This document shows, one piece after another, positions 4,008 to 58,151 of a stretch of 60,786 bases of DNA. Numbering within the stretch: position 1 is the stretch's first letter; each line of letters starts with the position of its first letter. Below the pieces are notes generated by a model. It searched no databases. It had not been told where the DNA came from and worked only from the letters and a program-made list of their open reading frames with translations. A program made the translations under genes and the position numbers. Source of the stretch: an uncultured Candidatus Saccharibacteria bacterium (GTDB lineage Bacteria > Patescibacteriota > Minisyncoccia > Phycocordibacterales > JACOZG01). The stretch is taken from positions 1 to 60,786 of the forward strand of contig CAYNPK010000004.1 of NCBI GenBank assembly GCA_964399075.1, read 5' to 3'.

Positions 4008-4039
4008 TAGTTAATTATAGCACGAGAATCTAGGAGATT

Positions 4040-5704
4040 CTAATAGTCCATCCCCATACCACCGGGCATTCCCCCACCCATACCACTGGGCATTGGCTTG
4101 TCTTCTTTAGGATCGTCAACAATAGCCACTTCCGTGGTGAGGAGAATAGCGGCGGCGGAGGCGGCGCGCTCAATCCCCGTCCTAGCCACCTTAACCGGAT
4201 CAATAATGCCAGCCGTAAACATATCAGCTACAATTTTATCAGCATTAGCGTCATAGCCCTCATTATTTTTGCCATTTCTAATCCGATCAACAATTACTTC
4301 GCCATCGTCCTTGCCGGCATTAATGGCAATCTGACGCAAGGGAGATTCTAGAGCTTTAAGCAAAATTCTAACACCAACTTGAAACTCATCGGCAATATCA
4401 GCTGATGGCGGTTTAAGAGTTTTACCGGACACAATGGCGCTCGCTCTCACCAGAGCTGTTCCGCCACCGGTAACAATACCTTCTTCAATCGCCGCCTTGG
4501 TAGCTTCCACAGCGTCTTCTATTTTTAATTTTTTGTATTTCATATCCGCCTCGGTAGCGGCGCCAACTTTAATTACCGCCACCCCACCGGAGAGTTTACC
4601 TAAACGTTCCTTTAATTTATCCTTGTCATATTGAGAATCTGACCGCTCAATTTGAGCTCTAATCTGGGTAATCCGCGTGTCAATGTCAGACTTTTTGCCA
4701 CTGCCACCAATAATCGTGGTGTTATCTTTAGTCGCCACAATGCGTCGCGCTCGTCCAAGCATTTTTATTTCAGCATTTTCTAATTTCAAACCAACCTCTT
4801 CAGAGACAACTTGCCCGCCAGTCAAAATAGCAATATCTTCTAACATTTCTTTGCGCTTATCACCATAGCCCGGCGCCTTGATTGCCAAAGTGTTGAAGGT
4901 GCCTCGAATTTTATTAACCACCAAGGTGGCTAGAGCTTCGCCGTCGATATCTTCCGCAATGATAACCAAATCCTTCTGACCGCGATTGGCTAATTTCTCC
5001 AACAAAGGCAAAACTTCTTTTACTGTTGAGATCTTCTTGTCGGTTAATAAGATAAAAGGATCGCGGTAAGTCGCCTCCATCCGCTCGGCATCAGTAATCA
5101 TGTAAGGCGACACGTAACCCTTATCAAACTGCATCCCTTCTACCAATTCTGACTCAACACCAAATGATTGGGATTCTTCCACGGTCACAACGCCGTCTTT
5201 GCCAACTTTATCAATCGCTTCGGCAATAATTTCGCCAAATTCAGCGGATTCGGCTGAAATTGTGGCCACTTGTTTAATCTCTTGTTTTTGTTTAATTGGC
5301 TTAGCTAGAGACTTAAGCGCTACCACTGCCTCGGCAGCAGCAGCCTCAATACCCAACTTAACCCCCATGGCGTTAACGCCAAGAGTGGTTTTCTTGAAGC
5401 CTTCATTAATCAACGCTTGAGTAAGAATTACTGCCGTGGTCGTGCCGTCACCGGCAATTTCATTAGTTTTGGAAGCGACTTCTTTAACAATTTCCGAGCC
5501 CATATTTTCAATCTTATCCTTCAGAGAAATTTCTTTAGCAATAGAAACACCGTCGTTAGTAATAGTTGGCGAACCGTAGCCCTTATCCAAAATAACATTG
5601 CGTCCTTTGGGACCAATGGTCACTCGCACGGCGTTAGCGGCGGCGTCAACGCCCCGCTTTAGCGCCTGCCTAGCCGTGTCACCGAAAATAATTTGTTTAG
5701 ACAT
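4040..5704 (-). CDS. groEL: Chaperonin GroEL
   Basis: [28 protein letters not shown]-rich tail. Confidence 0.99.
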
Positions 5705-6513: not shown

Positions 6514-8253
6514 GTGAAATTATTACCGACTAGCAACGAGGTAGCTCTAACCCTACAGACCTTACCCAAGAAACACAGGGCTTGGCTAATTATCGCTGGG
6601 CTAATTTTTATCGTTGCCCTTTTGGGAATATTATTCCAATTCAGTCTCAACTTTTCCGAAACAGTTGCCGGACAAGGTGGCAAACTAACAGAAGGAATAA
6701 TTGGTACCCCAAGATTTATTAATCCCCTTCTAGCCAGTGCTGATGCTGATCGCGATTTAACAACCCTGATTTATTCCGGACTAATGCGCGTCTCTAGTGA
6801 CAATAATTTAATCCCAGATTTAGCCGAGCGTTACGAGGTGTCAGAAGATGGTTTAACCTACACTTTTTATCTACGCGAGAATTTATCTTGGCATGATGGC
6901 AAACCTCTAACGACCGATGATGTTGAATTTACTATTACTAAAGCCAAAGACTCGCTCTTACGAAGTCCGCGGAGAGGCAATTGGGAAGGAGTTGAAATAG
7001 AAAAAGTCAGCTCTAAAGAAATTAAATTTAAACTCTCTCAACCTTATACTCTATTTCTGGAGAATACCACGATTGGTATCTTGCCTAAGCACATTTGGGA
7101 CAACCTCTCAACCGATATCTTCACGGTCAGTCAATTTAACATTCAGCCAATCGGCTCCGGCCCTTATCAGGTCAAAAAAATCGCTTTAAACAATTTAGGT
7201 ATTCCTTATTATTACGACCTAGAACCATTTGACGGCTTTGCTTTAGGAAAACCCAAGATCGAACGCTTACGATTACGTTTTTACCCCAACGAAGAAGCCC
7301 TAATGGACGCTTACCAACATAAAGAAATAGATAATCTAAGCTCTGTTTCCGCTCAAAATATTAATGTATTAAATAACACCAGAACAAAAATCGTTGAATC
7401 TATCCTGCCAAGAACTTTTGCGATTTTCTTAAACCAAAACAAGGCGATAATCCTAGCCAATCATGAAGTGCGCGAAGCCTTAGATTTAGTCATAGACAGA
7501 CAAGAGATCGTAGATCAGATTCTCCAAGGTCATGGCAAACCACTAACTGGGCCATTGCCACTCTATGATAATGAGAATAATGAAATCGAGGCAGAACAAA
7601 TAACAACAGCAGAGCGACTGGAACAAGCGCGGACTCTACTCCAGAGACGAGACTGGGAATGGAACGAGGACGAAGCGGTCTGGCAAAAAGAAATAGATGG
7701 CAGTGTTACCGATTTGGCTATTTCTCTAACAACCGCTGAAACACCGGAACTGAAAGCAACAGCAGAAATGATTAAAGAGATTTGGGAGGAATTAGGAGTG
7801 AAAGTTACTTTAAATATTTATGAGATTGGCGATCTTAATTTAAATATCATCAGAACTAGACAATATGAGGCTCTCCTCTTCGGACAAATCATCGGACAGA
7901 AACCGGATCTCTTCCCCTTCTGGCATTCAAGTCAAAGACTAGACCCCGGACTCAACATCGCCCTCTACACCAACAGTCAAGTTGATAAATTACTAGGAGA
8001 AATTCGCGGATCAACTAGCGAAGAAACTGAAGTTGAAAATTATCAAGAAGTTATTAACAAAATTAATCAGGATATTCCCGCCATCTTTCTGTATTCCCCT
8101 CACTTTCTTTATGCCACTTCGACAAAAGTCAAACAGATAGCCGTTCCTATTATTAATAATCCAGCCGATCGCTTCCTTGCTGTCCACGAGTGGTACATCA
8201 ATACTGATCGAGTTTGGAAATTGTTCGTTAATGAAAATAATAAAACAAAATAA
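6514..8253 (+). CDS. ABC peptide/nickel-type substrate-binding protein (family 5), membrane-anchored
   Basis: LIYSGL, PDLAERYEVSEDGLTYTFYLR, WHDGKPLT, PIGSGPY motifs. Confidence 0.88.
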   Translation: MKLLPTSNEVALTLQTLPKKHRAWLIIAGLIFIVALLGILFQFSLNFSETVAGQGGKLTEGIIGTPRFINPLLASADADRDLTTLIYSGLMRVSSDNNLIPDLAERYEVSEDGLTYTFYLRENLSWHDGKPLTTDDVEFTITKAKDSLLRSPRRGNWEGVEIEKVSSKEIKFKLSQPYTLFLENTTIGILPKHIWDNLSTDIFTVSQFNIQPIGSGPYQVKKIALNNLGIPYYYDLEPFDGFALGKPKIERLRLRFYPNEEALMDAYQHKEIDNLSSVSAQNINVLNNTRTKIVESILPRTFAIFLNQNKAIILANHEVREALDLVIDRQEIVDQILQGHGKPLTGPLPLYDNENNEIEAEQITTAERLEQARTLLQRRDWEWNEDEAVWQKEIDGSVTDLAISLTTAETPELKATAEMIKEIWEELGVKVTLNIYEIGDLNLNIIRTRQYEALLFGQIIGQKPDLFPFWHSSQRLDPGLNIALYTNSQVDKLLGEIRGSTSEETEVENYQEVINKINQDIPAIFLYSPHFLYATSTKVKQIAVPIINNPADRFLAVHEWYINTDRVWKLFVNENNKTK

Positions 8254-8258
8254 AAAAT

Positions 8259-10022
8259 ATGCACCCACGTTCAACCAAACCAAGGCCAGTTTCTGGCCAC
8301 AGTAAGCCTGGTCAAACAACAGTAATGAAAATTCCGCCACTAGCCACTGGCGATATTCGGATTATTCCACTCGGTGGCGTGGAAGAGATTGGGAAAAATA
8401 TGACCGTAATCGAATTCGGTAATGACATTATCATCGTCGATGCTGGTCTAAAATTTGCTGATGAGGATACGCCAGGCATTGACTACCTCATACCCGACAC
8501 TACTTATCTGGAAGAAAATAAAGAAAAAATCCGCGGAGTAGTTATTACTCATGGACACTTAGATCACATCGGCGGATTGCCCTATATCTTGCCAAGAATT
8601 GGCAATCCGCCGGTTTATACCAGAAATTTAACTGGGATCATGCTTCAAAAGCGCCAAGAAGAATTCCCCCATCTACCTAAACTTCAACTCAATATTGTGG
8701 AAAATGAAGATAAGGTTCGTCTAGGAGAATTAACTTTGCGCTTCTTTAACGTTACCCACACTATTCCCGACGCGATGGGTATAATCGTGGAAACGCCCTA
8801 TGGCCTGATTGTGAATCCGGGCGACTTCAAACTCGAGCACGAGAATGGTGTCCCCACTGATCGAGAAGAAAAAAGTTACGAAATTTTCGACAAAGAACAA
8901 GTTTTGCTCCTAATGACTGACTCAACCAATGTGGAGAACCCGGGCTTTTCTATTTCCGAAAAAGAAGTCCACAAAAATCTGGAAGAAATAATCAAACAAG
9001 TTCAGGGTCGTTTATTTATTGGTTTATTTGCCTCACAACTAGAAAGAATTATTAAAGTGATTGAAATCGCCGAACGCTACGGACGTAAAGTGGTAGTAGA
9101 GGGACGAAGCATGAAAACGAATATTGAAGTGGCAATCCTAGCTGGACTTCTTAAAACCAAGAAAGACACTATCGTCGCCTCTTCAGAAGCCAGTGATTAT
9201 CCAGATAACAAACTATTAGTGTTAGCAACCGGCGCGCAAGGAGAAGAATTTGCCGCCATGATGCGAATGGCCACCAAAACTCACAAATTTTTGCGCTTCA
9301 CCAAGGGCGACACAGTTATCTTATCCTCATCAATCATTCCAGGTAACGACAAAATGGTAGAAAAACTTAAAGATAACATCGCCCGACAAGGAGCCAAGAT
9401 TATTCACTACCGCAGTTCCGAAGTTTATATCCACTCATCCGGCCACGGCAACCGTGAAGAAATTAGCTGGTTGCACAAGCGTTTGAAACCGCGCTTCCTT
9501 ATCCCCGTTCACGGCAACCATCATCGTCTGCGCATTCACGCCGATCTGGCAATCGAGAACGGCATTCCGGAAAAAAACATCATCGTACCCGACAACAGTA
9601 TGATTGTGGAGATCACCGACAAGGGACAAAAAATCGCCGCCCGGAAGGAAACCGCCTCCAACAAATTAATCATGGTGGACAATCTGGGATCAGACAGCGT
9701 TAAAGAAGTGGTCATTCGCGACCGACAAATGTTATCCCAAGATGGAATTTTCGTCATCATTACTCTGATCGATGTTAAAACTGGTAAAGTCCGCAAATCG
9801 CCTGATATCATTTCTCGAGGTTTTATCTATCTCAAAGAATCACAAGACTTATTGCGACAAGTCCGCATTATCACTAAGCGCAAAATTGAAGAGGCAACAA
9901 CTCAAATGCATCCAATCAATTTTGATTATGTGAAAAACATTATTCGGGAAGAAGTGGGTAAATACCTCTTCCAGAAAACTCACAACCGTCCAATTATCCT
10001 ACCGGTATTGATTGAAGTATAA
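8259..10022 (+). CDS. rnj: Ribonuclease J
   Basis: PLGGVEEIGKNM, THGHLDHIG, HSSGH, PVHG, RPIILPVLIEV. Confidence 0.96.
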   Translation: MHPRSTKPRPVSGHSKPGQTTVMKIPPLATGDIRIIPLGGVEEIGKNMTVIEFGNDIIIVDAGLKFADEDTPGIDYLIPDTTYLEENKEKIRGVVITHGHLDHIGGLPYILPRIGNPPVYTRNLTGIMLQKRQEEFPHLPKLQLNIVENEDKVRLGELTLRFFNVTHTIPDAMGIIVETPYGLIVNPGDFKLEHENGVPTDREEKSYEIFDKEQVLLLMTDSTNVENPGFSISEKEVHKNLEEIIKQVQGRLFIGLFASQLERIIKVIEIAERYGRKVVVEGRSMKTNIEVAILAGLLKTKKDTIVASSEASDYPDNKLLVLATGAQGEEFAAMMRMATKTHKFLRFTKGDTVILSSSIIPGNDKMVEKLKDNIARQGAKIIHYRSSEVYIHSSGHGNREEISWLHKRLKPRFLIPVHGNHHRLRIHADLAIENGIPEKNIIVPDNSMIVEITDKGQKIAARKETASNKLIMVDNLGSDSVKEVVIRDRQMLSQDGIFVIITLIDVKTGKVRKSPDIISRGFIYLKESQDLLRQVRIITKRKIEEATTQMHPINFDYVKNIIREEVGKYLFQKTHNRPIILPVLIEV

Positions 10023-23548: not shown

Positions 23549-25199
23549 TCTTTTTTACATTTTTCATAGCAGCTTTAATAAAAGATAAGAATAGCGGATG
23601 AGGTTTAAGCGGAGCCGATTTAAATTCCGGATGAAATTGACAACCTAAGAAAAAGGGGTGAATCGACTTAGGCAACTCAACAATTTCCATTAAACGACCA
23701 TCCGGCGAAGTCCCCGAGAACACCAAACCGGCAGAGGTAAGCAACTGAATAAACCTTGGATTAACTTCGTAACGATGGCGGTGACGCTCGTTAATTTGCA
23801 ACTGACGATAAGCTTGATAAGCCAGAGTGCCACGCTTAATAAGGGCTGGTTGAGATCCCAAGCGCATCGTGCCACCAAAGTTCTGATTACTAACATTTTC
23901 CGTTTGCTCTAACATCAGATCAATGACCGGAGACTTTGTTTCCAGATCAATTTCTGTAGTATGTGCATCCGGCAAACCAGCAACGTGACGAGCAAATTCA
24001 ACAACCGCTAATTGCATGCCATAGCATAAACCCAAATAGGGAATGCCTCTCTCGCGAACATACTTAATTACATTGATCTTACCGGCCACACCACGCTCGC
24101 CGAAACCGCCAGGGACTAGAATTCCGTGATACTGATCGAGATTCTTAAGTTGCTTCAGACCAGCGGAAGACTCGTAGTCACCAGCATCAAGCCAATCGAG
24201 TTCTAGACGACGATTTAGGGCACCAGTGGCGTGCTTAAGCGATTCAATAATCGAAATATAAACATCCGACAAGACGAAATCGCCAGTCTTAAAATATTTA
24301 CCAACGATACCAATCCGCACCGGCTTGGTGGCTCGCCTCATCTTGAGCGCCATTGCTTGCCACTCCTTCATGTCAGTTTGATTAGTCTTGAGTTGGAGTA
24401 AACGCAAAACGGTCGAGCTCAAATTATCAGCCTCAAAATTTAGCGGAATATCATAAATATTATCCACATCGGGAGCAGAAATAATGTGCTCAACAGGCAC
24501 ATTGCTGGAGAGAGCAATTTTCTCTTTGCGCTTCTTGTCAATCAGTCTATCACTGCGGGCAATAATAATATCAGGATGCACACCGTAAGAATTAAGGGAG
24601 CGAACGGCGTATTGAGTTGGCTTGGTCTTCATCTCCCCAATCTTAGACGGCACCGGCAGATAGCTAACCAGAACAAACAGCACATCAGTCGGATGTCTTA
24701 ATTTTAGAATGCGAGCTGCTTCAATAAAAATGGCGTTCTGATATTCGCCAACGGTTCCGCCGATTTCAATCAAAGTAACATCCGCTTTTGTTAGATCAGT
24801 AGAGGCCTTGATGCGTCGCAAGATCTCGGCAGAGATGTAAGGCACTGGATCGACGCACTTACCACCATAACCCAAGGCGCGCTCCTTATCGATTACATAC
24901 TTATAAACCATCCCACTGGTCATATAATTCTCAGGCGGAATACTCTGACCAAGAAAACGCTCATAGTTGCCCATGTCTTGATCGCACTCCAAACCGGAAT
25001 CTAAGACGAAAACTTCGCCATGCTCAATTGGATTCATCGTCCCAGCGTCGACATTGAGATAAGGATCGATCTTCATCGGGTTAACAACCAAGCCACGCGC
25101 CTGGAGAATCTTGGCGATAGAGGCGGTAGTGATGCCCTTGCCAACGCCAGACATTACACCACCGATAATAAAAATGTATTTATGTTTGCTTGCTGACAT
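23520..25199 (-). CDS. pyrG: CTP synthase
   Basis: GGVMSGVGKG, KIDPYLNVD, KTKPTQ, PGGFGERG, LGLCYGMQ, QFHPEF. Confidence 0.98.
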   Translation of the reverse strand: MSASKHKYIFIIGGVMSGVGKGITTASIAKILQARGLVVNPMKIDPYLNVDAGTMNPIEHGEVFVLDSGLECDQDMGNYERFLGQSIPPENYMTSGMVYKYVIDKERALGYGGKCVDPVPYISAEILRRIKASTDLTKADVTLIEIGGTVGEYQNAIFIEAARILKLRHPTDVLFVLVSYLPVPSKIGEMKTKPTQYAVRSLNSYGVHPDIIIARSDRLIDKKRKEKIALSSNVPVEHIISAPDVDNIYDIPLNFEADNLSSTVLRLLQLKTNQTDMKEWQAMALKMRRATKPVRIGIVGKYFKTGDFVLSDVYISIIESLKHATGALNRRLELDWLDAGDYESSAGLKQLKNLDQYHGILVPGGFGERGVAGKINVIKYVRERGIPYLGLCYGMQLAVVEFARHVAGLPDAHTTEIDLETKSPVIDLMLEQTENVSNQNFGGTMRLGSQPALIKRGTLAYQAYRQLQINERHRHRYEVNPRFIQLLTSAGLVFSGTSPDGRLMEIVELPKSIHPFFLGCQFHPEFKSAPLKPHPLFLSFIKAAMKNVKKNVVVSKKVN

Positions 25200-26116
25200 C
25201 AGACTCGGAGATGCCGACGAATGGCCAGGAAACTAGCGACCATGCCCAAGACCACACCCGACACCAACAAGATCAAGAAAATAGAAGCAAAGTGTTCAAG
25301 GAAATAAGAAGTTAGATTAATGCCACCATAGACGCCGGCGGTTTTAGTTCGAATCCAAATCGTCGCTGGATAGAGCAAGACAACAGCAATAATCGAAGCA
25401 ATAAACCCGGAGATAACTCCCTCAATAATGAAGGGTCCTCGGACATAATTATTACCAGCGCCAACTAACTTCATTAGAGAAATCTCTTCGCGAGAAATAT
25501 AAATGGCCAGAGAAATAGTGTTAAAGGTAACAATAATAGAAGTGAAAATGAGAACCAGAGCAATTGCCCAACCGACAGTTTTAGAAGTATTAATAATTCT
25601 AATCAATCTATCGATCACGTCTTTCTTAAAACTAATTTGGTCGATAATTATTTCGCCACTAGAAGAACGGGAGCTATCACTCTCGAGAAACTTAGCTACA
25701 TTCTCATAACGCCCAGGGTCAGTTGAGATAATATTGAGACGAGCGCCAAAGGGGTTACCAATCTCATCTAGTGAACGAATGACTAAACTATTATTCTCGT
25801 TACGCTGACGGAAGTCGGCCAACTCCTCTTCGCGCGAGCTGTAGTGAACTGACTTAATTTCAACCAAAGACTCCAGAGTTTTCTGTAACTCCAAGACCTC
25901 GGTCTCCGGCACTTCGGGATAGAAAGAAACACTAATATCGACCTTCTCTTGAATCGCCAGCAGTGAAGAATTAAAGAAAGCGCCAGATAAAATGAGAGCA
26001 CCAATGACAAACAAAGTTACGGTAATCGTCACAATAGAAGCTAGAGAAACAATAGGATTACGCCAGAAGCTAAGCAACCCCCAACGAAAAATTCTTTTAA
26101 GATTAATTAGCAACAT
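25199..26116 (-). CDS. ftsX: Cell division permease FtsX
   Basis: FNTISLAIY..REEI..MKLVGA...VRGPFIIEG; follows ftsE. Confidence 0.92.
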   Translation of the reverse strand: MLLINLKRIFRWGLLSFWRNPIVSLASIVTITVTLFVIGALILSGAFFNSSLLAIQEKVDISVSFYPEVPETEVLELQKTLESLVEIKSVHYSSREEELADFRQRNENNSLVIRSLDEIGNPFGARLNIISTDPGRYENVAKFLESDSSRSSSGEIIIDQISFKKDVIDRLIRIINTSKTVGWAIALVLIFTSIIVTFNTISLAIYISREEISLMKLVGAGNNYVRGPFIIEGVISGFIASIIAVVLLYPATIWIRTKTAGVYGGINLTSYFLEHFASIFLILLVSGVVLGMVASFLAIRRHLRV

Positions 26117-26121
26117 AAAAA

Positions 26122-26802
26122 TTACAAAATATATTTACCAACTTTATTATCACGAGTAATACGACCGTTCTCCAAAGTGATCACTCTCTTGCCCAAAGAA
26201 TCAATGACTGACTTATTGTGAGTGGTTAAAATCACCGTGGTGCCGACTTCGTTTATTTTACGCAAAATTTCAATAATTTCAAAAGTATTAATCGGATCAA
26301 GATTACCAGTCGGCTCATCAGCTAATAATAAATCTGGCTGATTAACAATCGCTCTAGCAATCGCCACTCGCTGACGCTCGCCACCGGATAATTCACTGGG
26401 GAAACTCCACATCTTGTGGCTTAGGCCAACCAGATCCAAGACATGAGGGACATCGGCTTCAATCTCCTCATCATTACGACCGGAGGCCTCCATCACGAAG
26501 GCGACATTCTCAAAAATTGTTTTAGCCGGCAAGAGGCGAAAATCTTGAAAGATGCTCCCAATCCGACGACGTAAACGAGGCACCTGATTCTTCGCCAAAG
26601 AATGAATATCTGTAGAGTTAAAAAAGACTTTACCGGAACTTGGCCTCTCCTCGGCCAGAATCATTTTGAGAAGTGTACTCTTGCCAGCGCCGGAATGGCC
26701 GACAATAGAAATAAATTGCTGAGGCTCAACAGTGAAAGTGATGTCATCAAGAGCGACAGACTGATCGCGATAGACTTTAGAAACTTTATCAAAAAAAATC
26801 AT
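26122..26802 (-). CDS. ftsE: Cell division ATP-binding protein FtsE
   Basis: GHSGAGKS, IFQDFRLL, LSGGERQR, ADEPTGNLD. Confidence 0.93.
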   Translation of the reverse strand: MIFFDKVSKVYRDQSVALDDITFTVEPQQFISIVGHSGAGKSTLLKMILAEERPSSGKVFFNSTDIHSLAKNQVPRLRRRIGSIFQDFRLLPAKTIFENVAFVMEASGRNDEEIEADVPHVLDLVGLSHKMWSFPSELSGGERQRVAIARAIVNQPDLLLADEPTGNLDPINTFEIIEILRKINEVGTTVILTTHNKSVIDSLGKRVITLENGRITRDNKVGKYIL

Positions 26803-26811
26803 TTGGTTTAA

Positions 26812-27684
26812 TTAAATTTTAGCAGTTAGAAAAATGTCAATTTGTCCAGCCATCACCGCTTCCACATCATGAGTTTCTACACCGGTGCGATGATCCTTAA
26901 CCATTTTGTAAGGATGGAAAACGTAAGAACGAATCTGACTACCCCACTCAATCTCTGTCGTCTTACTGATGTACATGCCCTGCTCTTTAGCCAATCTCTC
27001 TTCCTCCTGTCGTTTGTACAACTTGCCCTTCAGAATCACTAGGGCTTGATCACGATTACGCTCTTGAGTGCGTTCATTGGAGGAATGAGCGGATAAATTG
27101 GTTGGCAGGTGGACAATCCGCACCGCTGTTTCCCGCTTGTTGACATTCTGCCCCCCGGGACCGCTAGAGCGAGAGAACTCAATCTTCAAATCAGCGGGGT
27201 CAATAGTGACCTCTTCACCCTTCTTAAACTCCGGAATGACTTCGACTAAAGCAAAAGAAGTGTGACGCAACTTCTTGGCGTTGAAGGGAGAGATCCGCAC
27301 GAGCCGGTGGACTCCCGACTCACCCTTTAATATACCATAAGCCTTAGATCCTTGCACCAAAAAAGTGATATTGCGATAACCACCATGATCATTCTGATTC
27401 TGGTGAAGCAAAACAATAGTCAAACCGGCCTTCTCGGCCCAATGCCAATACATTTCGCACAAGAGACGCGAGAAATCTTCCGCATCATCCCCACCGGCGC
27501 CAGCAAAAATAGTAATAATCGCATTACCGGAATCATATTTCCCCTCACCGGCCAATTGCCGTTTCAACTCATTAAATTCGGCCACCTTCTCCTGCGCCTC
27601 GCGTTTATCAGACCAGAAGCCGGGCAAGCCCATTTCTTGTTCCAGTTGTTTAATTTTCTGCGTGAGTTCTTGCTTATTCACCAT
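26812..27684 (-). CDS. prfB: Peptide chain release factor 2 (compact)
   Basis: GESGVHRLVRISPF (SPF), SSGPGGQNVNK (GGQ), WGSQIRSYV. Confidence 0.92.
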   Translation of the reverse strand: MVNKQELTQKIKQLEQEMGLPGFWSDKREAQEKVAEFNELKRQLAGEGKYDSGNAIITIFAGAGGDDAEDFSRLLCEMYWHWAEKAGLTIVLLHQNQNDHGGYRNITFLVQGSKAYGILKGESGVHRLVRISPFNAKKLRHTSFALVEVIPEFKKGEEVTIDPADLKIEFSRSSGPGGQNVNKRETAVRIVHLPTNLSAHSSNERTQERNRDQALVILKGKLYKRQEEERLAKEQGMYISKTTEIEWGSQIRSYVFHPYKMVKDHRTGVETHDVEAVMAGQIDIFLTAKI

Positions 27685-27741
27685 AACAATCTAATTCAGG
27701 ATTTTCCATAACCCTAATTTTATCAAAAATTCTTAATCTCA

Positions 27742-27770
27742 ACCACCCCAGCTTAGGAAGCTGGGGTGGT
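27742..27770. other. Perfect 13-bp hairpin 3' of VR (candidate DGR cis element)
   Basis: accaccccagctt-agg-aagctggggtggt, 9 bp past the stop codon, no U-tract in the coding direction. Confidence 0.6.
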
Positions 27771-27779
27771 AATCAAGGT

Positions 27780-28601
27780 TCAAATCTCAAGAAGAACGAC
27801 CCGATCATCGGCACCCCAAGCACTGCCGAGCCAGCCAGCGCTACGGTGCCAAGCCGACCCATTCCAGTAAGCGTAAGGCACACACCAGCTGCCATAGGAG
27901 TCACGGAGGAGAGAACCAGGGAAGTAGAACCAAGAGCTTTTGTCTTTTAAGATGTCTGGAGTTTTGTCGGGGTTCTTCTCTAGCCAATGCCAGTATTCTA
28001 CTCCAGGCAAGTGGTGGGTGTTGGCGTAGGTGTCAGTGATATATTGGAAGACTTCTGATCGTGGTTTGCCATTGTAAGCAGAGAGATCGGGAATGAAGAT
28101 TTTAGCTTGTTCGAAGTCCAGAGCTTGAGTCTCGGGGTTTAAGGTGTATTCACCGAATTTGGTTTTGTCTATGTCTGTTTTCAACGTCTCGTAGTCTTGA
28201 TCTTCGGGTTTGATGAGAGTGGGAGTAAAGCCAGTTTCTGGGGTACCGAAGATCTTGAGGTCGTCTTGGTATTGCTCATTGAGAGCTTCAAGGTCTAGCT
28301 CTGGTTCTTGAGGTAGCTCCTCACCAGAGTCTAGAGTAGCTTGGAGACTGTCGAGACGGTGGTCGGCTCTCGAGAGTTCTCCTTGCAGGCGGAGTTTCCT
28401 CGCTTCACCACTGCCTGGTTCTTCTCCTTCTTGGTCTTCGAATTCACCTTGGGCCAGTTTCTCATCATAGATATCCAATCTAGCAAGAGTTTGTTGACGG
28501 AGCTTGGCGATGCGTTGAGTGAGAGCTTGACGGAGAGCCTCTTGAGTTTGAGGTTCTCTCTCGTTTGCTTGAGCCAGCTGGTGGAGGGATTCTGGGATCA
28601 T
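27780..28601 (-). CDS. DGR target-like protein, copy 1 (acidic coiled-coil N-terminus, CLec-type variable C-terminus)
   Basis: C-terminal ~130 aa paralogous to the AAA+ protein C-terminus; ends GSLLRDSYGSWCVPYAYWNGSAWHRSAGWLGSAWGADDRVVLLEI. Confidence 0.85.
   Translation of the reverse strand: MIPESLHQLAQANEREPQTQEALRQALTQRIAKLRQQTLARLDIYDEKLAQGEFEDQEGEEPGSGEARKLRLQGELSRADHRLDSLQATLDSGEELPQEPELDLEALNEQYQDDLKIFGTPETGFTPTLIKPEDQDYETLKTDIDKTKFGEYTLNPETQALDFEQAKIFIPDLSAYNGKPRSEVFQYITDTYANTHHLPGVEYWHWLEKNPDKTPDILKDKSSWFYFPGSLLRDSYGSWCVPYAYWNGSAWHRSAGWLGSAWGADDRVVLLEI
27787..27917 (-). repeat. DGR variable region (VR), allele A
   Basis: 131 bp; 13 differences from 31390-31520, all at positions 1-2 of NNY codons. 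Confidence 0.88.
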
Positions 28602-28610
28602 ATTATAAAT

Positions 28611-30461
28611 CTATAAATCTTGTAAATGTTCTTTTAATAATTCTCCCAACGCCAAGGGCAATCTGGAGACATCTTCGACGACCAAAGCATTAGGAGCATA
28701 AGTTGATAAGACTGGCGAACCACCACTAGTCAGACCAACCCCGAGAGCAACCACGCCCTTGTCTCGCAAACTCTTCAAAACCGCCTGGACTCTAGTCGGA
28801 TCATCACTGCCACCGTCGGTGAAGATAATCACAATTTTCTTCAGCTCGCCGATTTTTATCTTTATCTTCGTCTGGTCATCTAGATTGGCGTCAATAGCTT
28901 CTAGAGAATTGAAATCGGTGGTCGTTCCGGGCAAATGCCCCAAACTCTTCAACACCTCCACCCTCTCCGCCTCGCCAAGCTCGGCGGACATTTTCTTCAT
29001 CGGCGTCCTATCCTCGCCGGCACCAAAGCCGTAAATCTCCGATCTAACCTCCAGTGGCTTATCAATATTTATTTTTTCCGCCTCGCATAATTCAGCAAAC
29101 TCCTTAAGCACCTCCATCATCAGAACGGCTGACTTCTTCTGCTCCTCCGCCTTCTTGCCCCCGTCCGCCGCCATAGAGCCAGACCTATCGCACACCAGAG
29201 TAATATCTACCTCGCCAAATTTCTCACCCCGCTTCTCCTTAATTTCCGTATCTTCCCAAACTTTGGGCTGGAGATTGCCGGCCTTCACCTCCGCAACCAA
29301 TTGGGCCGGATCTACCAAGTCATCGCCCTCCTCCACGGGATACTTCGGCGCCAACATTTGCTTGAGTCTCTTAGAAATAATCCGCGAGAACAGATCTCTT
29401 AACTCTTTAAGAATGTTCACGTCCGTTTCTGGATTAACCAGCTTGTCCAACTTTTCCACCATCTTCCGATAATCTTGCAAATCCTGCTTCTCCACGCCAA
29501 TCTTGCTAGCATAATCCTGATCAGCTTGGTCAGCATTATTTTCTCCAGTCTGCGCCTCTTGCCATTCTTTGAAAGCTTTCTCTATTTCCTCCACCGGCAT
29601 CGCTTCGGGAAATTTCTTTTCCGCCTCGGCATATTCCTTCGCGAAAATTTTATTAGGGTCAGTTTCTTCGTCCTCCACTTTTTTTCCACCAGCTTCGCCT
29701 TTTTCACCCTCACCTTTTTCTGACTCTTGCTTTTCCCGCTCTTCTTCCTTTTGCTTCCGCCTATCTTCAAGATCCTTCTCCAAGAGCGCCTGCACCTTGG
29801 GCCAGATATATTTATCCTGCAACTTCAGACGCATAGACATAGTCGTTTCCGGATTAGTCATAATGTCTAGCAAACCCTCCACTTGGGCCACCTCATCCAG
29901 CGCTTGTCTTACTTCCGGCGCTACCTGGCAAGTCTCGCTCGGCACTCGCGCCTCGCGCAACAGCGCCTGGCTAAATTGAATGTGTTTGGGCTCGGCGCTA
30001 AAATCAGTCCCGGGAAATAAATTTTCTTGGTAAATCTTCGTCTCCAACTCACCCATGCCCGGATTAGTTTTAGCCACCACGGTTCGATTTTCTCTAACAT
30101 CTGCGACACAATTATCCATGAGAGAAAAAGCTTTAGAAGTCTTGATCCGTTTAAGAAATTTCTCAAACACTTTCTCCCCACCATCTTCCGACAACAGACG
30201 CGACTTTTCCATAAAGTGCTCCAACTCGTGCAAAATAGCGAAAACCGTCTTCTCTTCCGACAAGCCAAACTCGGCATAAAACATGGAATTGACATAGATA
30301 GTGTTCTTTTCTAAATCAAAAGCAAAAGTATTTAACCCCGCCGGTGCTGGCTCAACTTTAATTTCGCCTCGAGCATAGTGCTCAAAGAAGTCTCGATGTT
30401 TCTCTACTAGAGCCACCGCTTCAGCATGTTCCCTTGTCTCAATACCGCTTGGTTGTTCCAT
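28611..30461 (-). CDS. vWA-domain protein with N-terminal HExxH metallopeptidase-like motif
   Basis: ILHELEH motif; acidic linker; MIDAS DRSGSM...T...FTDG. Confidence 0.85.
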   Translation of the reverse strand: MEQPSGIETREHAEAVALVEKHRDFFEHYARGEIKVEPAPAGLNTFAFDLEKNTIYVNSMFYAEFGLSEEKTVFAILHELEHFMEKSRLLSEDGGEKVFEKFLKRIKTSKAFSLMDNCVADVRENRTVVAKTNPGMGELETKIYQENLFPGTDFSAEPKHIQFSQALLREARVPSETCQVAPEVRQALDEVAQVEGLLDIMTNPETTMSMRLKLQDKYIWPKVQALLEKDLEDRRKQKEEEREKQESEKGEGEKGEAGGKKVEDEETDPNKIFAKEYAEAEKKFPEAMPVEEIEKAFKEWQEAQTGENNADQADQDYASKIGVEKQDLQDYRKMVEKLDKLVNPETDVNILKELRDLFSRIISKRLKQMLAPKYPVEEGDDLVDPAQLVAEVKAGNLQPKVWEDTEIKEKRGEKFGEVDITLVCDRSGSMAADGGKKAEEQKKSAVLMMEVLKEFAELCEAEKINIDKPLEVRSEIYGFGAGEDRTPMKKMSAELGEAERVEVLKSLGHLPGTTTDFNSLEAIDANLDDQTKIKIKIGELKKIVIIFTDGGSDDPTRVQAVLKSLRDKGVVALGVGLTSGGSPVLSTYAPNALVVEDVSRLPLALGELLKEHLQDL

Positions 30462-30561
30462 GTGACTATTTTACTCTTTTTATTCTGTTTAACAAAAATC
30501 GTCGCAAAACACAGCAAACCCAAACCACCCCAGCTTAGGAAGCTGGGGTGGTAATCAAGGT

Positions 30562-31383
30562 TCAAATCTCAAGAAGAACGACCCGATCATCGGCACCCCA
30601 AGCACTGCCGAGCCAGCCAGCGCTACGGTGCCAAGCCGACCCATTCCAGTAAGCGTAAGGCACACACCAGCTGCCATAGGAGTCACGGAGGAGAGAACCA
30701 GGGAAGTAGAACCAAGAGCTTTTGTCTTTTAAGATGTCTGGAGTTTTGTCGGGGTTCTTCTCTAGCCAATGCCAGTATTCTACTCCAGGCAAGTGGTGGG
30801 TGTTGGCGTAGGTGTCAGTGATATATTGGAAGACTTCTGATCGTGGTTTGCCATTGTAAGCAGAGAGATCGGGAATGAAGATTTTAGCTTGTTCGAAGTC
30901 CAGAGCTTGAGTCTCGGGGTTTAAGGTGTATTCACCGAATTTGGTTTTGTCTATGTCTGTTTTCAACGTCTCGTAGTCTTGATCTTCGGGTTTGATGAGA
31001 GTGGGAGTAAAGCCAGTTTCTGGGGTACCGAAGATCTTGAGGTCGTCTTGGTATTGCTCATTGAGAGCTTCAAGGTCTAGCTCTGGTTCTTGAGGTAGCT
31101 CCTCACCAGAGTCTAGAGTAGCTTGGAGACTGTCGAGACGGTGGTCGGCTCTCGAGAGTTCTCCTTGCAGGCGGAGTTTCCTCGCTTCACCACTGCCTGG
31201 TTCTTCTCCTTCTTGGTCTTCGAATTCACCTTGGGCCAGTTTCTCATCATAGATATCCAATCTAGCAAGAGTTTGTTGACGGAGCTTGGCGATGCGTTGA
31301 GTGAGAGCTTGACGGAGAGCCTCTTGAGTTTGAGGTTCTCTCTCGTTTGCTTGAGCCAGCTGGTGGAGGGATTCTGGGATCAT
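30562..31383 (-). CDS. DGR target-like protein, copy 2
   Basis: Translation identical to 27780-28601; start overlaps the AAA+ stop (ATGA). Confidence 0.85.
   Translation of the reverse strand: MIPESLHQLAQANEREPQTQEALRQALTQRIAKLRQQTLARLDIYDEKLAQGEFEDQEGEEPGSGEARKLRLQGELSRADHRLDSLQATLDSGEELPQEPELDLEALNEQYQDDLKIFGTPETGFTPTLIKPEDQDYETLKTDIDKTKFGEYTLNPETQALDFEQAKIFIPDLSAYNGKPRSEVFQYITDTYANTHHLPGVEYWHWLEKNPDKTPDILKDKSSWFYFPGSLLRDSYGSWCVPYAYWNGSAWHRSAGWLGSAWGADDRVVLLEI
30569..30699 (-). repeat. DGR variable region, allele A (duplicate)
   Basis: Same sequence as 27787-27917. Confidence 0.85.
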
Positions 31384-33707
31384 ATTTTTTCAAGAAGAAC
31401 GACCCGACCATGGGCATCCCAAGCATTGCCGAGCCAGCGAGCGCTACGGTCCCAAGCCGACCCACCCCAGCCAGCGTAAGGCACATCCCAGCTGCCATAG
31501 GAGCCACGGAGGAGAGAACCGAACTGGTAATAATAATTTCCATCTTTAAACTGGGTGGGGACTTTATCCGGATTTTCTAGTATAAACTTCCAATATTCAA
31601 TCCCGGGCAACTTATATCTGTCAGAATAAGTATCAATCAGATGTTTAGCCACTTCTGCTAGAGGTTCGCCTTCAAGAGCCGAGAGGTCCGGTATGTAAAT
31701 CTTGTCTCTAAGCGCCTCCCAATCTAAGTTCTGGGTATCAGGATTTATGGTAAACTCTCCAAATTTAGAAATATCAACATCAGCCTGACGAGTTGGATAG
31801 TCTATAGTGTCTGGATTGATAATTTCCGTCTTAATAGTGACATTGTTAATTTTATCAGCCTCTACTCCCCATTTTCCATAAGTTTCTTTAAGAAAGGGGG
31901 TAAATTCAATGGTGGGGTCCTCAACAACCCCTAATTCTCCTCTCAATGACCGACTGAAGTCATCAACACCGCCTACTTGTTCATTACCCAGAAGCGCTTC
32001 GGCTTGGTCTCTTAATAAGTTAGCTCTCCGACCGAAGGGATCAAGCATCGCCACCTCCTTAAGCGAGAGGTGCTTGGTGTCACCAGATTTGGCTTGGAGC
32101 TCTTCTACGGCCTCGGCGCCTCTCAACCTCTTGATCGTGTTGAATTGGAAAATGTCCTCCGGTAAATCTAAATCTTTTTTGGCATCTAAAGTCAGCAAAA
32201 AGCCTTTCGAGGCCAGAATCTTAGCGACTAAGATTCTATCTTCTTTTGGATATTCCTTAAAAGTCAAAGCAGTCTTAAATCTTTCATCTAGAAATTCGGC
32301 GAAACTTCTCTCTTTTTTACCAGTTTGTTTTTCGATAAGCCAGGAAGACAATATCGCCTCCACCGAACCTTGGGTCATCACAAACTTTTTCAAAGAATAC
32401 ATCTTGCCGGAAGCATCCATTGCCCCCGACCGTCTTGCCACCTCTTTATCAGTTTCATTAGTATAACTTTCTTGAATTTCTGACATCACTCGGCAAAGAT
32501 TCGGAAGTGTCGTGTTGAGATCGTGAAAAGACATATCAAGAGAGCCGTCGCGATTCAGAAGTCTAGCCAGTATGATGTCATAGGCCTCATCAGGAGGGGT
32601 ATATTTAACTTCCAAATTGTTTTGCTCGAATTCGCGAGCGATCTCGGGTGGTAAATCTTGTCGTTCGGGATTCTTTTCCGACTTCAAGTTAGCAGTGAAG
32701 ATCATTTGGAAACCGGGGGCAATTTCCACTATACCGTTACCAACAATGTTTATCTTATCGCCCACCCTGGCGTTAAAAACACCCTTGATGAAAACCATTT
32801 GCTCTTTCGGCAAAGCCGTAAATTCATCGAAAATAACCGTCTTACCCTCTGCCATGGCCTTAGCCAAAGGTCCATAAATTTCCACCGTTTCTATCGCTCC
32901 ACTCTTAGTCGGCTTGATACCGGTCTTACCCCAAACATTTGATTCTTTAGTCTGCGGATTACAAAATACCATCTCCGGATCTTTACCAGTGAAGTGCCTG
33001 GCGGCATAACGCGCCAAAGAAGTTTTTCCCGTACCGGTTGGACCATGCAGAAACATCGGTTTGCCGGTCAACATTCTATCGCCGATTGCTTCTAAGTCTC
33101 TTTCCACACTTGGCGTAATGCAAATGTGACCACTCTGCGCCAAATTTTCTTTATATTCCACAATTTCAGCTTGACGTAGCACGACCATGTCCACTTTTGA
33201 TAATTCTTTTTCACTTTTTTCGATTTCTTCATTTATTTTCTTTAAACGCCCTTCGTGTCTTTTTTTCTTAGCTTGTGATGTGTCCGAACTCAAAATCTCT
33301 AGCATTATTTGCACTCTATAATCTTTTAACGAAGCGATGTTTGCCAATAAATCTTTCGGCTCTTTAATTTCTGGCGATTCCTGTAAGATAGAATCGTAAT
33401 CAATACCACTTAATTCGTCTAAGATTTTCTGTTCATATTCACTTTTTTGTTTATTTAAAAAAGTTTTTGCCCCACTTAACCCACCATAATCAGCAACTTT
33501 AAAAGCATCCGCTTGCTTATTTTTTTCTTCCAAAGAATCAATCTCATCGGCGACAAGAATTTCTCCCGAAGATTTTTTCAACTTCCCCTCCTTGATCTTA
33601 TTTTTAAGTCCAGAAATAACTTCTCTGAACTCCCTTCTTTCTTCAGAAACCTCATGAAAATTGGTCGGATTTTCTGGTTCCGGACTTACTTCAGGTATTT
33701 TTTCCAT
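31380..33707 (-). CDS. MoxR/dynein-related AAA+ ATPase with C-terminal DGR-variable (CLec-type) domain
   Basis: Walker A GPTGTGKT, Walker B VIFDE, FQMIFTAN; C-terminal VR. Likely start ATG 33707, 6 nt after TGTTATTAT. Confidence 0.9.
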   Translation of the reverse strand: MEKIPEVSPEPENPTNFHEVSEERREFREVISGLKNKIKEGKLKKSSGEILVADEIDSLEEKNKQADAFKVADYGGLSGAKTFLNKQKSEYEQKILDELSGIDYDSILQESPEIKEPKDLLANIASLKDYRVQIMLEILSSDTSQAKKKRHEGRLKKINEEIEKSEKELSKVDMVVLRQAEIVEYKENLAQSGHICITPSVERDLEAIGDRMLTGKPMFLHGPTGTGKTSLARYAARHFTGKDPEMVFCNPQTKESNVWGKTGIKPTKSGAIETVEIYGPLAKAMAEGKTVIFDEFTALPKEQMVFIKGVFNARVGDKINIVGNGIVEIAPGFQMIFTANLKSEKNPERQDLPPEIAREFEQNNLEVKYTPPDEAYDIILARLLNRDGSLDMSFHDLNTTLPNLCRVMSEIQESYTNETDKEVARRSGAMDASGKMYSLKKFVMTQGSVEAILSSWLIEKQTGKKERSFAEFLDERFKTALTFKEYPKEDRILVAKILASKGFLLTLDAKKDLDLPEDIFQFNTIKRLRGAEAVEELQAKSGDTKHLSLKEVAMLDPFGRRANLLRDQAEALLGNEQVGGVDDFSRSLRGELGVVEDPTIEFTPFLKETYGKWGVEADKINNVTIKTEIINPDTIDYPTRQADVDISKFGEFTINPDTQNLDWEALRDKIYIPDLSALEGEPLAEVAKHLIDTYSDRYKLPGIEYWKFILENPDKVPTQFKDGNYYYQFGSLLRGSYGSWDVPYAGWGGSAWDRSARWLGNAWDAHGRVVLLEKI
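31390..31520 (-). repeat. DGR variable region, allele B
   Basis: 118/131 identical to allele A, while the flanking paralogous sequence is far more diverged. Confidence 0.88.
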
Positions 33708-33763
33708 AACCACATAATAACACTATCAAAATGTTTTGAAAAACCAGGAGATTACCCGAGATT

Positions 33764-33839
33764 TGGAGCCACCTCGCGGGGTTGAACCGCGGACCCCCAC
33801 TTTACGAAAGTGGTGCTCTACCAACTGAGCTAAGGTGGC
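33764..33839 (-). tRNA. tRNA-Thr(CGT)
   Basis: CCACT-TTCGTAA-AGTGG anticodon arm; cloverleaf with CCA. Confidence 0.95.
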
Positions 33840-33849
33840 CTGACACCTA

Positions 33850-33925
33850 TGGAGCCGATGCGCAGAATTGAACTGCGGACCTTTCCCTTACCATGGGAGT
33901 GCTCTACCAACTGAGCTACATCGGC
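33850..33925 (-). tRNA. tRNA-Thr(GGT)
   Basis: CTCCC-ATGGTAA-GGGAA anticodon arm; cloverleaf with CCA. Confidence 0.95.
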
Positions 33926-33946
33926 TTTGTCTCCTTCACTAACAAG

Positions 33947-34020
33947 CGCGACCGACCGGACTTGAACCGGCAACCTCTCGCGTGACAGGCGAGTGCTCTA
34001 ACCAGTTGAGCTACGATCGC
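33947..34020 (-). tRNA. tRNA-Asp(GTC)
   Basis: CTCGC-CTGTCAC-GCGAG anticodon arm; CCA not encoded. Confidence 0.95.
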
Positions 34021-34044
34021 AATATTAATCTAATTAAAGACCGG

Positions 34045-34118
34045 TGCCGGCGGGTGGAATTGAACCACCGACCTTGGGCTTATGAGTCCCACGCTCTAAC
34101 CAACTGAGCTACACCGGC
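34045..34118 (-). tRNA. tRNA with CAT anticodon (elongator Met or Ile2)
   Basis: TGGGA-CTCATAA-GCCCA arm, paired 1:72; Met vs Ile2 cannot be resolved by eye. Confidence 0.9.
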
Positions 34119-34163
34119 GCCAAATTATTGTAGCAAAAAGCTCTAAGAAGATAAAGACTAAAC

Positions 34164-34237
34164 TGGTTGCGGGGCCGGGATTTGCACCCGGGTCTCGAGG
34201 TTATGAGCCTCGCGAATTACTGTTACTCTACCCCGCG
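34164..34237 (-). tRNA. Initiator-type tRNA-Met(CAT), atypical D and T loops
   Basis: C1:A72 mismatch, A11:U24, CTCATAA loop, CCA. Confidence 0.88.
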
Positions 34238-58059: not shown

Positions 58060-58151
58060 CCGACCGCATTTTTGCTTCCGATTCCGATTTTCAATTTTGG
58101 CGGTACCTTTTGGTTGAAATTCTAACCTTTTTTGAACAGAACCCCGACTGA
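58060..58151 (+). pseudogene. Recombinase 3'-end / attP-like scar
   Basis: 58060-58103 is 38/44 identical to 1799-1842; reads SDSDFQFWRYLLVEILTFFEQNPD*. Confidence 0.7.

Follow-up and report, generated by a model that had tools for sequence, protein, structure and literature searches.

A MoxR-type ATPase and HExxH-vWA operon with a putative diversity-generating retroelement footprint in a candidate phyla radiation bacterium

Layout of the operon

The window analysed here is an entire contig of 60,786 bp (CAYNPK010000004.1, assembly GCA_964399075.1) from an uncultured Candidatus Saccharibacteria bacterium that falls within the candidate phyla radiation (CPR). Its minus strand carries a run of four open reading frames (ORFs) that encode, in order, a 777-aa ATPase, a 273-aa protein, a 616-aa protein with a von Willebrand factor A (vWA) domain and another 273-aa protein. 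Judged by its homologues, this operon belongs to a widespread, largely undescribed family. An earlier note, made from the letters of this DNA, had described four genes in this order on the minus strand, and the ORFs bear out that arrangement. The ATG of the first small gene (copy A, 30562–31383) overlaps the stop codon of the ATPase gene (ATGA), 100 nt then separate copy A from the vWA gene (28611–30461), and a further 9 nt separate the vWA gene from the second small gene (copy B, 27780–28601). Features of the operon are given below by their coordinates in the window, all on the minus strand.

The ATPase gene (31380–33713) encodes 777 aa when read from the GTG at 33713, or 775 aa from the ATG at 33707 (database protein P0121). 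Its product matches Pfam AAA_5 (2e-13, residues 220–345), with a Walker A motif, GPTGTGKT, at residue 224 and a Walker B motif, VIFDE, at residue 293, which upholds its earlier assignment as a MoxR-type AAA+ ATPase; a bpMoxR match in the same Pfam scan falls below the family cut-off. The nearest solved structure by sequence is NorQ (9qh4, 8e-6) and the best NCBIfam match is GvpN. More than 100 homologues, at 46–75% identity, were found in metagenome-assembled genomes (MAGs) of Patescibacteria.

The C-terminal 147 aa of the ATPase (31383–31823, translation checked) share 56% identity with the last 145 aa of the small protein. As the earlier note had proposed, the last approximately 145 residues of the two proteins are, on this alignment, one homologous domain, referred to here as the variable domain. 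Copy A comprises a conserved N-terminal module followed by this domain; in the alignment, the N-terminal approximately 130 residues form a separate conserved module with the motif GEFxDxxGExxGSGExR. The small protein has no Pfam match, and its 32 homologues are all unnamed and likewise without Pfam domains. Among relatives, the variable domain occurs in at least two types, that of the window (ending in RVVLLE) and another (ending in LGVRPSRSFF). Neither type matched Pfam or the sequences of the PDB, and hhalign of one against the other returned nothing; nor did the variable domain match any of 50,697 phage genomes. The label ‘C-type lectin’ (CLec), which the earlier note attached to the domain, is an assumption drawn from what is expected of diversity-generating retroelements (DGRs).

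The two small genes are exact duplicates. Positions 27741–28604 and 30523–31386 are identical base for base over 864 bp; each arm starts 3 nt ahead of the ATG and ends with a hairpin, at its far edge, 39 nt past the stop codon. The ‘second small protein’ of the earlier note is consequently not a distinct gene product but the same 273-aa sequence encoded twice. The duplication could be a recent event, the outcome of gene conversion, or the collapse of near-identical paralogues by the assembler. Between the hairpin of copy A and the vWA gene lies a short unique spacer (30462–30523) with a promoter-like site at 30495–30468.

All of the operon proteins look cytoplasmic. No transmembrane-like segment is present, the Kyte-Doolittle maximum being 1.24, and the N-termini are hydrophilic and charged, in line with the lack of transmembrane helices and signal peptides reported in the earlier note.

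The HExxH-vWA protein

The 616-aa protein, defined by its ORF, its homologues and an AlphaFold2 (AF2) model, combines an N-terminal domain of approximately residues 1–250 (29712–30461) with a C-terminal vWA domain (residues 417–616, 28614–29213). The N-terminal domain contains the motif HELEH (30216–30230, residues 78–82), and the C-terminal domain matches Pfam VWA (1.2e-7, residues 419–580) and carries the metal ion-dependent adhesion site (MIDAS) motif DRSGS (29175–29189), so that the presence of an HExxH motif on a vWA protein was correctly read in the earlier note.

More than 400 homologues of this protein were found. The best 120, at 61–77% identity, come from MAGs of Patescibacteria (Paceibacterota and Taylorbacteria among them), and the most specific name that any of these carries is ‘VWA domain-containing protein’. 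Among 50 close homologues, H78, E79, H82 and E85 are invariant, as are the MIDAS residues D425, S427, T514, T515 and D549, with S429 retained in at least 90%. The HExxH motif is also invariant in 30 homologues reaching down to 45% identity. In a more diverse set of representatives at ≤50% identity, 131 of which span the motif, H78 and E79 are each kept in 129 and H82 in 113; the conservation of the motif among vWA homologues, on which the earlier note had made its proposal depend, is thus upheld. Further residues of the HExxH domain are conserved to a comparable degree, namely N117 (129/136), D121 (133/138), N125 (121/138), Y144 (128/138), H160 (133/135) and Q162 (134/135).

When 1.84 billion cluster representatives were searched exhaustively with a profile of the HExxH domain, only 304 clusters matched; most of the full-length matches are 600–780 aa long, and a C-terminal vWA domain was present in 7 of the 10 distant members scanned. 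The HExxH half matched no Pfam family in any of 50 members and nothing in NCBIfam or PADLOC. Two candidate families, DUF2201_N and VMAP, gave no match.

Two independent but weak lines of evidence point to the HExxH domain being a small zincin. In a profile search against PDB sequences the sole match was selecase, the minimal gluzincin MJ1213, with a weak score (E=0.046) and an alignment covering the edge β-strand and the HExxH helix. The second line is structural. In the full-length AF2 model (mean predicted local distance difference test score, pLDDT, 75.8) HELEH lies on a helix at residues 69–91, after strands at residues 35–57. Foldseek searches with this model returned vWA matches only, and the N-terminal domain was therefore modelled separately (residues 1–255, pLDDT 64); the top eight matches of this second model were selecase (E from 0.065, with a probability of 0.85 at that value, and probabilities up to 0.89), followed by the BlaR1 M56 domain and IrrE. 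In selecase the third zinc ligand is a histidine seven residues past the motif. This histidine is absent from the vWA protein, in which D121, H160 and E85 are candidates for the third ligand. For the vWA half, the top Foldseek match was the MIDAS domain of Rea1 (6qt8, 2.4e-7), and the NorQ–NorD VWA complex (9qh8) was also matched.

Variable regions and the absent retroelement cassette

The ATPase gene and the small genes share, at their 3′ ends, a 131-nt block in which they are 90% identical, the identity dropping abruptly upstream. Repeat comparison places these variable regions (VRs) at 31390–31520 in the ATPase gene, 30569–30699 in copy A and 27787–27917 in copy B. The mismatches between the ATPase VR and the small-gene VR fall at codon positions 1 or 2 in 13 of 13 cases, spread over 10 codons; the chance of all 13 doing so is (2/3)^13, or approximately 0.005. 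Related loci were drawn on for comparison, five on long contigs (L001–L005) and 50 more from GTDB species representatives, the latter scored by phmmer. In L001, L003 and L005, one template repeat (TR) accompanies two or three VRs, and the TR–VR mismatches fall almost exclusively at TR adenines. L005 shares the VR type of the window, and 7 of the 10 variable codons of the window align with Asn (AAY) codons of its TR.

The small-gene VRs are also followed by hairpins. The hairpin after copy A (30524–30552) has a perfect 13-bp stem and a 3-nt loop and begins approximately 10 nt past the stop codon, and an inverted-repeat search located the same 13-bp stem after copy B (27742–27770); no inverted repeat lies downstream of the ATPase VR. 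In L005, a GC-rich hairpin with a 10-bp stem and a 4-nt loop, the same one each time, comes after each of the three VRs. The hairpin of the window may serve in DGR target recognition, as a terminator, or in both ways. The VR mismatch pattern of the window reads as the footprint of DGR mutagenic homing from an AAY-codon template, an interpretation that we regard as sound because of the TR-adenine mismatches in L001, L003 and L005, the codon matches with L005 and the hairpins of L005.

The machinery that would have left this footprint is missing from the contig. Degenerate patterns (≤3 mismatches) and word-7 blastn recovered just the three VRs and no TR. A scan of JGI metagenome contigs for a TR by exact pattern had no match, but that collection does not include the window's own contig, so that this negative carries no weight. 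No ORF of the window contains the YxDD motif of a reverse transcriptase (RT), and tblastn of five RTs and three Avds from relatives against the 60,786 bp gave nothing better than E=0.6. The description ‘hypervariable’ in the earlier note is not borne out here, the whole contig holding no TR, RT, Avd or fourth VR-like copy. The reprogrammable specificity that was attributed to this copy is not supported either, as no DGR engine is present in cis and specificity may be frozen.

Comparison with relatives indicates where the cassette would be expected. In most relatives a TR-avd-RT cassette separates the vWA gene from the ATPase gene or small gene; in the window, the spacer (30462–30523) holds no trace of one. 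The closest relatives with context, L023 (75% identity) and L040 (78%), have TR-avd-RT between the ATPase and vWA genes, and the extra small-gene copy of the window occupies the same interval. Because the cassette is absent and the ATPase VR lacks a hairpin, the copy in the window is either frozen or dependent on an RT encoded elsewhere in the genome.

Further features of the VRs were seen in other loci. In L020, which has no RT, the VR segments of the ATPase gene and the small gene (4026–4325 and 7059–7358) are 98% identical, and in L051, also without an RT, the corresponding segments (4877–5026 and 9020–9169) are 100% identical; in RT-bearing loci the VRs are diverged. The similarity in RT-less loci may reflect homogenisation after diversification stops, or a recurrent assembly effect. 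In L005 (7435–8034) the RT ORF is only approximately 190–200 aa long and has no Pfam match, yet the TR, the Avd and the three VRs with their hairpins are intact; either decay of the RT or a frameshift or assembly error may account for this.

Gene linkage in related loci

The genes of the operon are linked well beyond the window. Of the related loci, 14 have flanks of at least 5 kb on either side of the vWA gene; all 14 contain an AAA_5 homologue, 12 a DGR RT, 12 an Avd and 10 at least one small protein. The earlier note had staked its proposal on these genes occurring together in other genomes, and this they do, the AAA_5 gene accompanying the vWA gene at all 14 loci. The cassette is located inside the operon in 12 of these loci. 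Two gene orders were seen, AAA-(small)-TR-avd-RT-vWA-(small) and vWA-AAA-TR-avd-RT. L001 and L002 carry AAA_5, a small gene, bAvd on the opposite strand, RVT_1, vWA and a second small gene; L003 and L004 have the same order minus the first small gene; and L005 carries what may be a decayed RT. The window belongs to an RT-less minority, together with L020, L030, L038 and L051.

More distant zincin-vWA members keep their AAA_5 neighbour without any DGR, and two of these are informative about the binding module. The DGR-less locus L058 (10841–18737) consists of a vWA gene and an AAA_5 gene followed by four full-length paralogues of approximately 250–320 aa and a 114-aa fragment. The repeat domain of these paralogues is 36–49% identical to the C-terminal approximately 160 residues of the ATPase of the same locus, and is built of repeats of approximately 22 aa with an L-x-L pattern and no Pfam match. 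In L060 (1–10595), an array of five or six ankyrin-type proteins, with a conserved N-terminus of approximately 35 aa in common, is encoded ahead of the vWA gene. This family member comes from a UGA-recoded lineage: read with code 11 it shows 52 in-frame UGA codons, and with codes 4 or 25 only one stop. Because L058 and L060 keep the plan of the operon with other modules, the constant part of the system is, on this comparison, the ATPase with the zincin-vWA protein, and the binding module appears to be interchangeable, its diversity coming either from a DGR or from arrays of genes. The separate variable ‘adaptors’ envisaged in the earlier note are supported by these arrays more than by the window itself.

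Other genes are found among the operon components of some relatives, namely the toxin–antitoxin-type genes AbiEii and PemK (L003, 7582–8244; L005, 9495–9887). An Avd-RT-vWA locus at 43% identity (L047, PXDW01000041.1) lies on a 3.6-kb contig that is binned as a Woesearchaeota archaeon, and represents either a misbinned contig or an occurrence of the system in DPANN archaea.

Chromosomal setting and sequence constraint

The operon is embedded among housekeeping genes on the same strand. Downstream are prfB, ftsE, ftsX and pyrG, and upstream are five tRNA genes, gatA, gatC and ligA. The prfB-ftsE-ftsX synteny is shared by the window, L001, L003, L009, L017 and L051.

Seven related loci also carry prfB, ftsE or ftsX, which allowed the conservation of the operon (window 28611–33713) to be compared with that of these neighbours (window 25199–27684) within the same genome pairs. 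Identities to the window proteins, given in the order vWA protein, ATPase core, RF2, FtsE and FtsX, are 72.6, 73.5, 58.0, 64.2 and 45.1% for L001, and 77.6, 75.7, 57.3, 66.8 and 40.0% for L003. For L051 they are 62.6, 65.1, 58.2, 63.1 and 42.9%. The remaining loci offer fewer comparisons: L009 has 74.1% for the vWA protein, 60.1% for RF2, 68.6% for FtsE and 43.0% for FtsX, with no ATPase core value; L017 has 65.2, 64.6, 54.4 and 63.3% for the first four proteins and no FtsX value; L030 has 55.1, 52.5 and 36.4% for the first three and no FtsE or FtsX value; and L037, without an RF2 value, has 50.9% for the vWA protein, 46.2% for the ATPase core, 66.4% for FtsE and 44.6% for FtsX. The vWA protein and ATPase core thus equal or exceed every compared RF2, FtsE and FtsX in five of the seven genome pairs. 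The exceptions are L051, in which the vWA protein is slightly under FtsE, and L037, in which both proteins are well under FtsE.

With conservation that in most of the genome pairs rivals that of RF2, FtsE and FtsX, and with the prfB-ftsE-ftsX synteny maintained in several loci, the locus has the look of a function that is inherited vertically and under strong selection, and not of a mobile defence island, although toxin–antitoxin-type genes are inserted in the loci of some relatives. PADLOC gave generic P-loop matches for the ATPase only, and none for the vWA or small proteins. A phage origin was considered and rejected, as IMG/VR viral contigs contain no relatives of the vWA protein and the search of phage genomes with the variable domain was empty.

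Some features of the surroundings are recorded for completeness. The five tRNA genes (Thr-CGT, Thr-GGT, Asp and two Met-CAT; 33764–34237) lie directly upstream of the operon. The prfB gene (26812–27684) is a single unbroken ORF of 290 aa, short for RF2, in which the usual programmed frameshift was not seen; its products in relatives are 287–291 aa long, with PCRF and RF-1 domains. Finally, a 44-nt direct repeat (86% identity) occurs near both ends of the contig, at 1799–1842 and 58060–58103, one copy of which overlaps the 3′ end of a tRNA-Ser gene by a few bases.

A proposed mechanism and its alternatives

The window holds a single copy of a conserved operon found on the chromosomes of Paceibacteria-type CPR, with a constant core made up of a MoxR-class AAA_5 ATPase and a protein in which a zincin-like HExxH domain is joined to a vWA/MIDAS domain. 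Our data are consistent with a model in which this operon works as a sensor-transducer-protease switch with programmable recognition, a reading that we hold to be about evenly balanced between right and wrong. In most relatives, the DGR cassette (TR, avd and RT) within the operon rewrites the last approximately 44 codons of the variable domain in all of its carriers. Capture of a cytoplasmic ligand would fall to the variable domains, both those carried by the ATPase ring and those of the small adaptors. The MIDAS face of the vWA protein might then dock on the ATPase or on an acidic segment of its partner, ATP hydrolysis would remodel the vWA protein, and the zincin domain, once exposed or activated, could make a limited cut, the target being the captured ligand, a regulator or itself. 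The sequence of events is drawn by analogy from NorQ–NorD, RavA–ViaA and Rea1. In favour of the model are the anatomy and domains of the operon, the DGR character of the VRs in relatives, the linkage of the genes across loci, the conservation of catalytic-type residues, the two lines of zincin likeness, the NorQ and Rea1 matches, the modularity of the binding domain in L058 and L060, and the strong constraint.

Several observations weigh against this model. The zincin statistics are weak (E approximately 0.05, and a pLDDT of 64 for the N-terminal model) and the third metal ligand is represented by candidates only; moreover, some family members may be non-catalytic, because Ala replaces the second His (H82) in 16 of 131 homologues. 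Neither Pfam nor the sequences of the PDB match the variable domain. The exact duplicate might have come about through the collapse, in assembly, of a pair of near-identical paralogues, and since the window lacks TR, RT and Avd, reprogramming cannot be demonstrated for this organism.

The earlier note had favoured a different activity for the same proteins, a cytoplasmic recognise-unfold-cleave machine possibly directed against phage or other invader proteins; on such a reading the AAA+ ring would thread and unfold the bound target and the HExxH domain would degrade it. Variable binding domains on an AAA+ protein beside a conserved HExxH domain would suit such a machine, as would the cytoplasmic appearance of the proteins and the AbiEii and PemK genes within some relatives' loci. 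However, the known MoxR/AAA_5 proteins NorQ, CbbQ, RavA and GvpN act as remodelling factors through vWA adaptors, and none of them is known to be a threading unfoldase. It is because known AAA_5/MoxR proteins are remodelling factors that we prefer a switch to processive unfolding. DGR-linked MoxR-vWA systems have been assigned to conflict in published proposals (PMC7159879, PMC10907252), but for the present family no specific PADLOC match, no viral-contig relative in IMG/VR and no other link to phage was found, and a stable place by prfB-ftsEX in several lineages, with conservation at the housekeeping level, is unlike the patchy distribution of defence islands. We therefore consider an unfolding and degrading machine to be unlikely. 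The same conservation, which for five of the seven genome pairs matches or exceeds RF2, FtsE and FtsX, the shared prfB-ftsE-ftsX synteny and the spread of the family over Paceibacteria-type lineages could instead speak for a housekeeping or host-interaction role, in which the pair matures or remodels an essential complex or processes host proteins, with the variable domain tracking a fast-evolving partner such as host molecules. Known MoxR-vWA pairs are indeed maturation factors. Yet no candidate client complex is encoded nearby, the proteins have no signal peptide or transmembrane segment for surface exposure, and diversification of a housekeeping chaperone would, to our knowledge, be unprecedented, so we judge this role to be distinctly improbable.

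Two further explanations concern the state of this copy rather than the activity of the family. The operon in the window may be a frozen relic that has lost its DGR cassette, whose small gene underwent duplication or was homogenised through gene conversion, and whose VRs are now fixed alleles. The absence of TR, RT and Avd from the 60.8-kb contig, the identity of the two small genes with their VRs included, the lack at the ATPase VR of the hairpin that follows every VR in L005, the TR-avd-RT cassettes between the ATPase and vWA genes in L023 and L040, and the near-identical or identical paralogous VR segments of the RT-less loci L020 (98%) and L051 (100%) all agree with such a history. Set against them are the ability of DGRs to act on remote targets, in a genome of which the contig is only the part seen, the perfect hairpin kept at both small-gene VRs, and the intactness and apparent constraint of all of the ORFs; for us, the case for a relic and the case against it are of equal weight. 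The 864-bp duplication might alternatively be an artefact, two similar yet distinct paralogues of the kind present in L001 and L053 having been collapsed by the assembler and used twice. Graph assemblers merge near-identical repeats, the 100% identity over 864 bp has sharp boundaries, similar identical segments occur in other MAG loci, and the paired small genes of relatives are 75–82% identical at the DNA level. Both junctions, however, leave intact and sensibly spaced genes (the ATGA overlap and the 9-nt gap), and the duplicated unit stops exactly at the hairpin. A simple chimeric misassembly at the junction of the ATPase and small genes was rejected, since the flanks share only approximately 10 nt, too short for a chimeric join. 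An assembly artefact seems to us distinctly improbable.

The switch model can be extended to the family as a whole. The AAA_5 and zincin-vWA pair would then be the engine of a hitherto unrecognised, vertically inherited programmable-recognition machine, near-core in Paceibacteria-type CPR, that converts ligand capture into a proteolytic signal through ATP-driven MIDAS remodelling; its swappable module, on the ATPase and on the adaptors, would be diversified by a DGR or by paralogue arrays of leucine-rich repeat-like or ankyrin type. We put this generalization forward tentatively, as clearly less probable than not. If true, organisms with minimal genomes would possess a system of surveillance or host sensing based on somatic diversification. 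For most of the genome pairs compared, the constraint on the locus rivals that on translation and division genes. The catalytic-type residues are conserved and can be mutated, which turns a vague ‘ligand-binding target’ into testable biochemistry, and RT-less copies such as that of the window represent natural controls for halted diversification.

Comparison with known systems

The targets of DGRs in CPR bacteria have been described as being without recognisable domains, and it was left undecided whether these are genuine non-membrane-bound targets (Roux et al. 2021, PMC8144416). The passages of Doré et al. 2024 (PMC10907252) that cite Paul et al. 2017 describe AAA-ATPase/CLec fusions as the commonest CPR DGR target, which agrees with the remark in the earlier note that AAA+ targets had been reported before, and Doré et al. 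suggested that the ATPase of such targets acts as a transducer. One CPR VR class, ‘UVR4/Midasin’, has Midasin-like matches (Wu et al. 2018, PMC5758913). The present operon resembles these targets in its lineage, in an AAA_5/Midasin-like ATPase with a VR at the extreme C-terminus, in the placement of avd on the opposite strand by the TR and RT in relatives, and in the capacity of one TR to serve several targets. It differs in that the literature searched treats the ATPase as an isolated target, whereas here it has an HExxH-vWA partner and small proteins, and in the window no DGR. The locus and its relatives put the commonest CPR target in a defined machine with an ATPase, a MIDAS domain, a putative protease and free adaptors. 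In the literature searched there is no mention of the HExxH-vWA partner, of co-diversified small proteins or of DGR-less variants, although an earlier mention in Paul et al. 2017 is possible. The description ‘candidate new system’ in the earlier note is nonetheless overstated, as AAA-fused CPR targets (PMC10907252) and DGR-linked MoxR-vWA systems (PMC7159879) are both already published.

Among better-characterized machines, NorQ–NorD, CbbQ–CbbO, RavA–ViaA and GvpN are similar in having an adjacent vWA gene with an intact MIDAS, and NorQ is the nearest solved ATPase. They have defined enzyme clients, and no variable domain, DGR or HExxH motif on the vWA partner. Rea1/Midasin likewise combines AAA_5-type modules with a MIDAS domain after a charged low-complexity linker, and provides the best structural match of the vWA part, but is one giant eukaryotic polypeptide with six AAA modules, whereas here a single AAA module and the MIDAS are on separate proteins. 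For the N-terminal domain, the aligned β-strand and HExxH helix make selecase MJ1213 the top fold match, with the BlaR1 M56 domain and IrrE also matched; the statistics are weak, and in place of the third-ligand His of selecase the family conserves N117, D121, N125, Y144, H160 and Q162.

A parallel in overall logic is with the MoxR-vWA-VMAP ternary conflict systems, which are often DGR-linked and in which the variable domain is carried by the vWA protein (Kaur et al. 2020, PMC7159879). These systems (PMC7159879, PMC10907252), for which a sensor-transducer-effector logic has been proposed, also consist of a MoxR ATPase and a vWA protein with a peptidase component and a DGR-diversified binding domain, and are also cytoplasmic. 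The wiring is different. The VMAP systems carry their variable FGS/CLec domain as a fusion to the vWA protein, with a trypsin- or caspase-like peptidase residing on the separate VMAP protein; in the present family the VRs are on the ATPase and small proteins and not on the vWA protein, and the zincin-like domain is N-terminal on the vWA protein. Pfam scans of the ATPase, small and vWA proteins and of 50 vWA homologues contained no VMAP family. VMAP systems are, moreover, enriched in multicellular bacteria, whereas the present system is found in CPR, which suggests that ultra-small symbionts possess an independent counterpart, with different wiring, of the MoxR-vWA-DGR logic described in multicellular bacteria.

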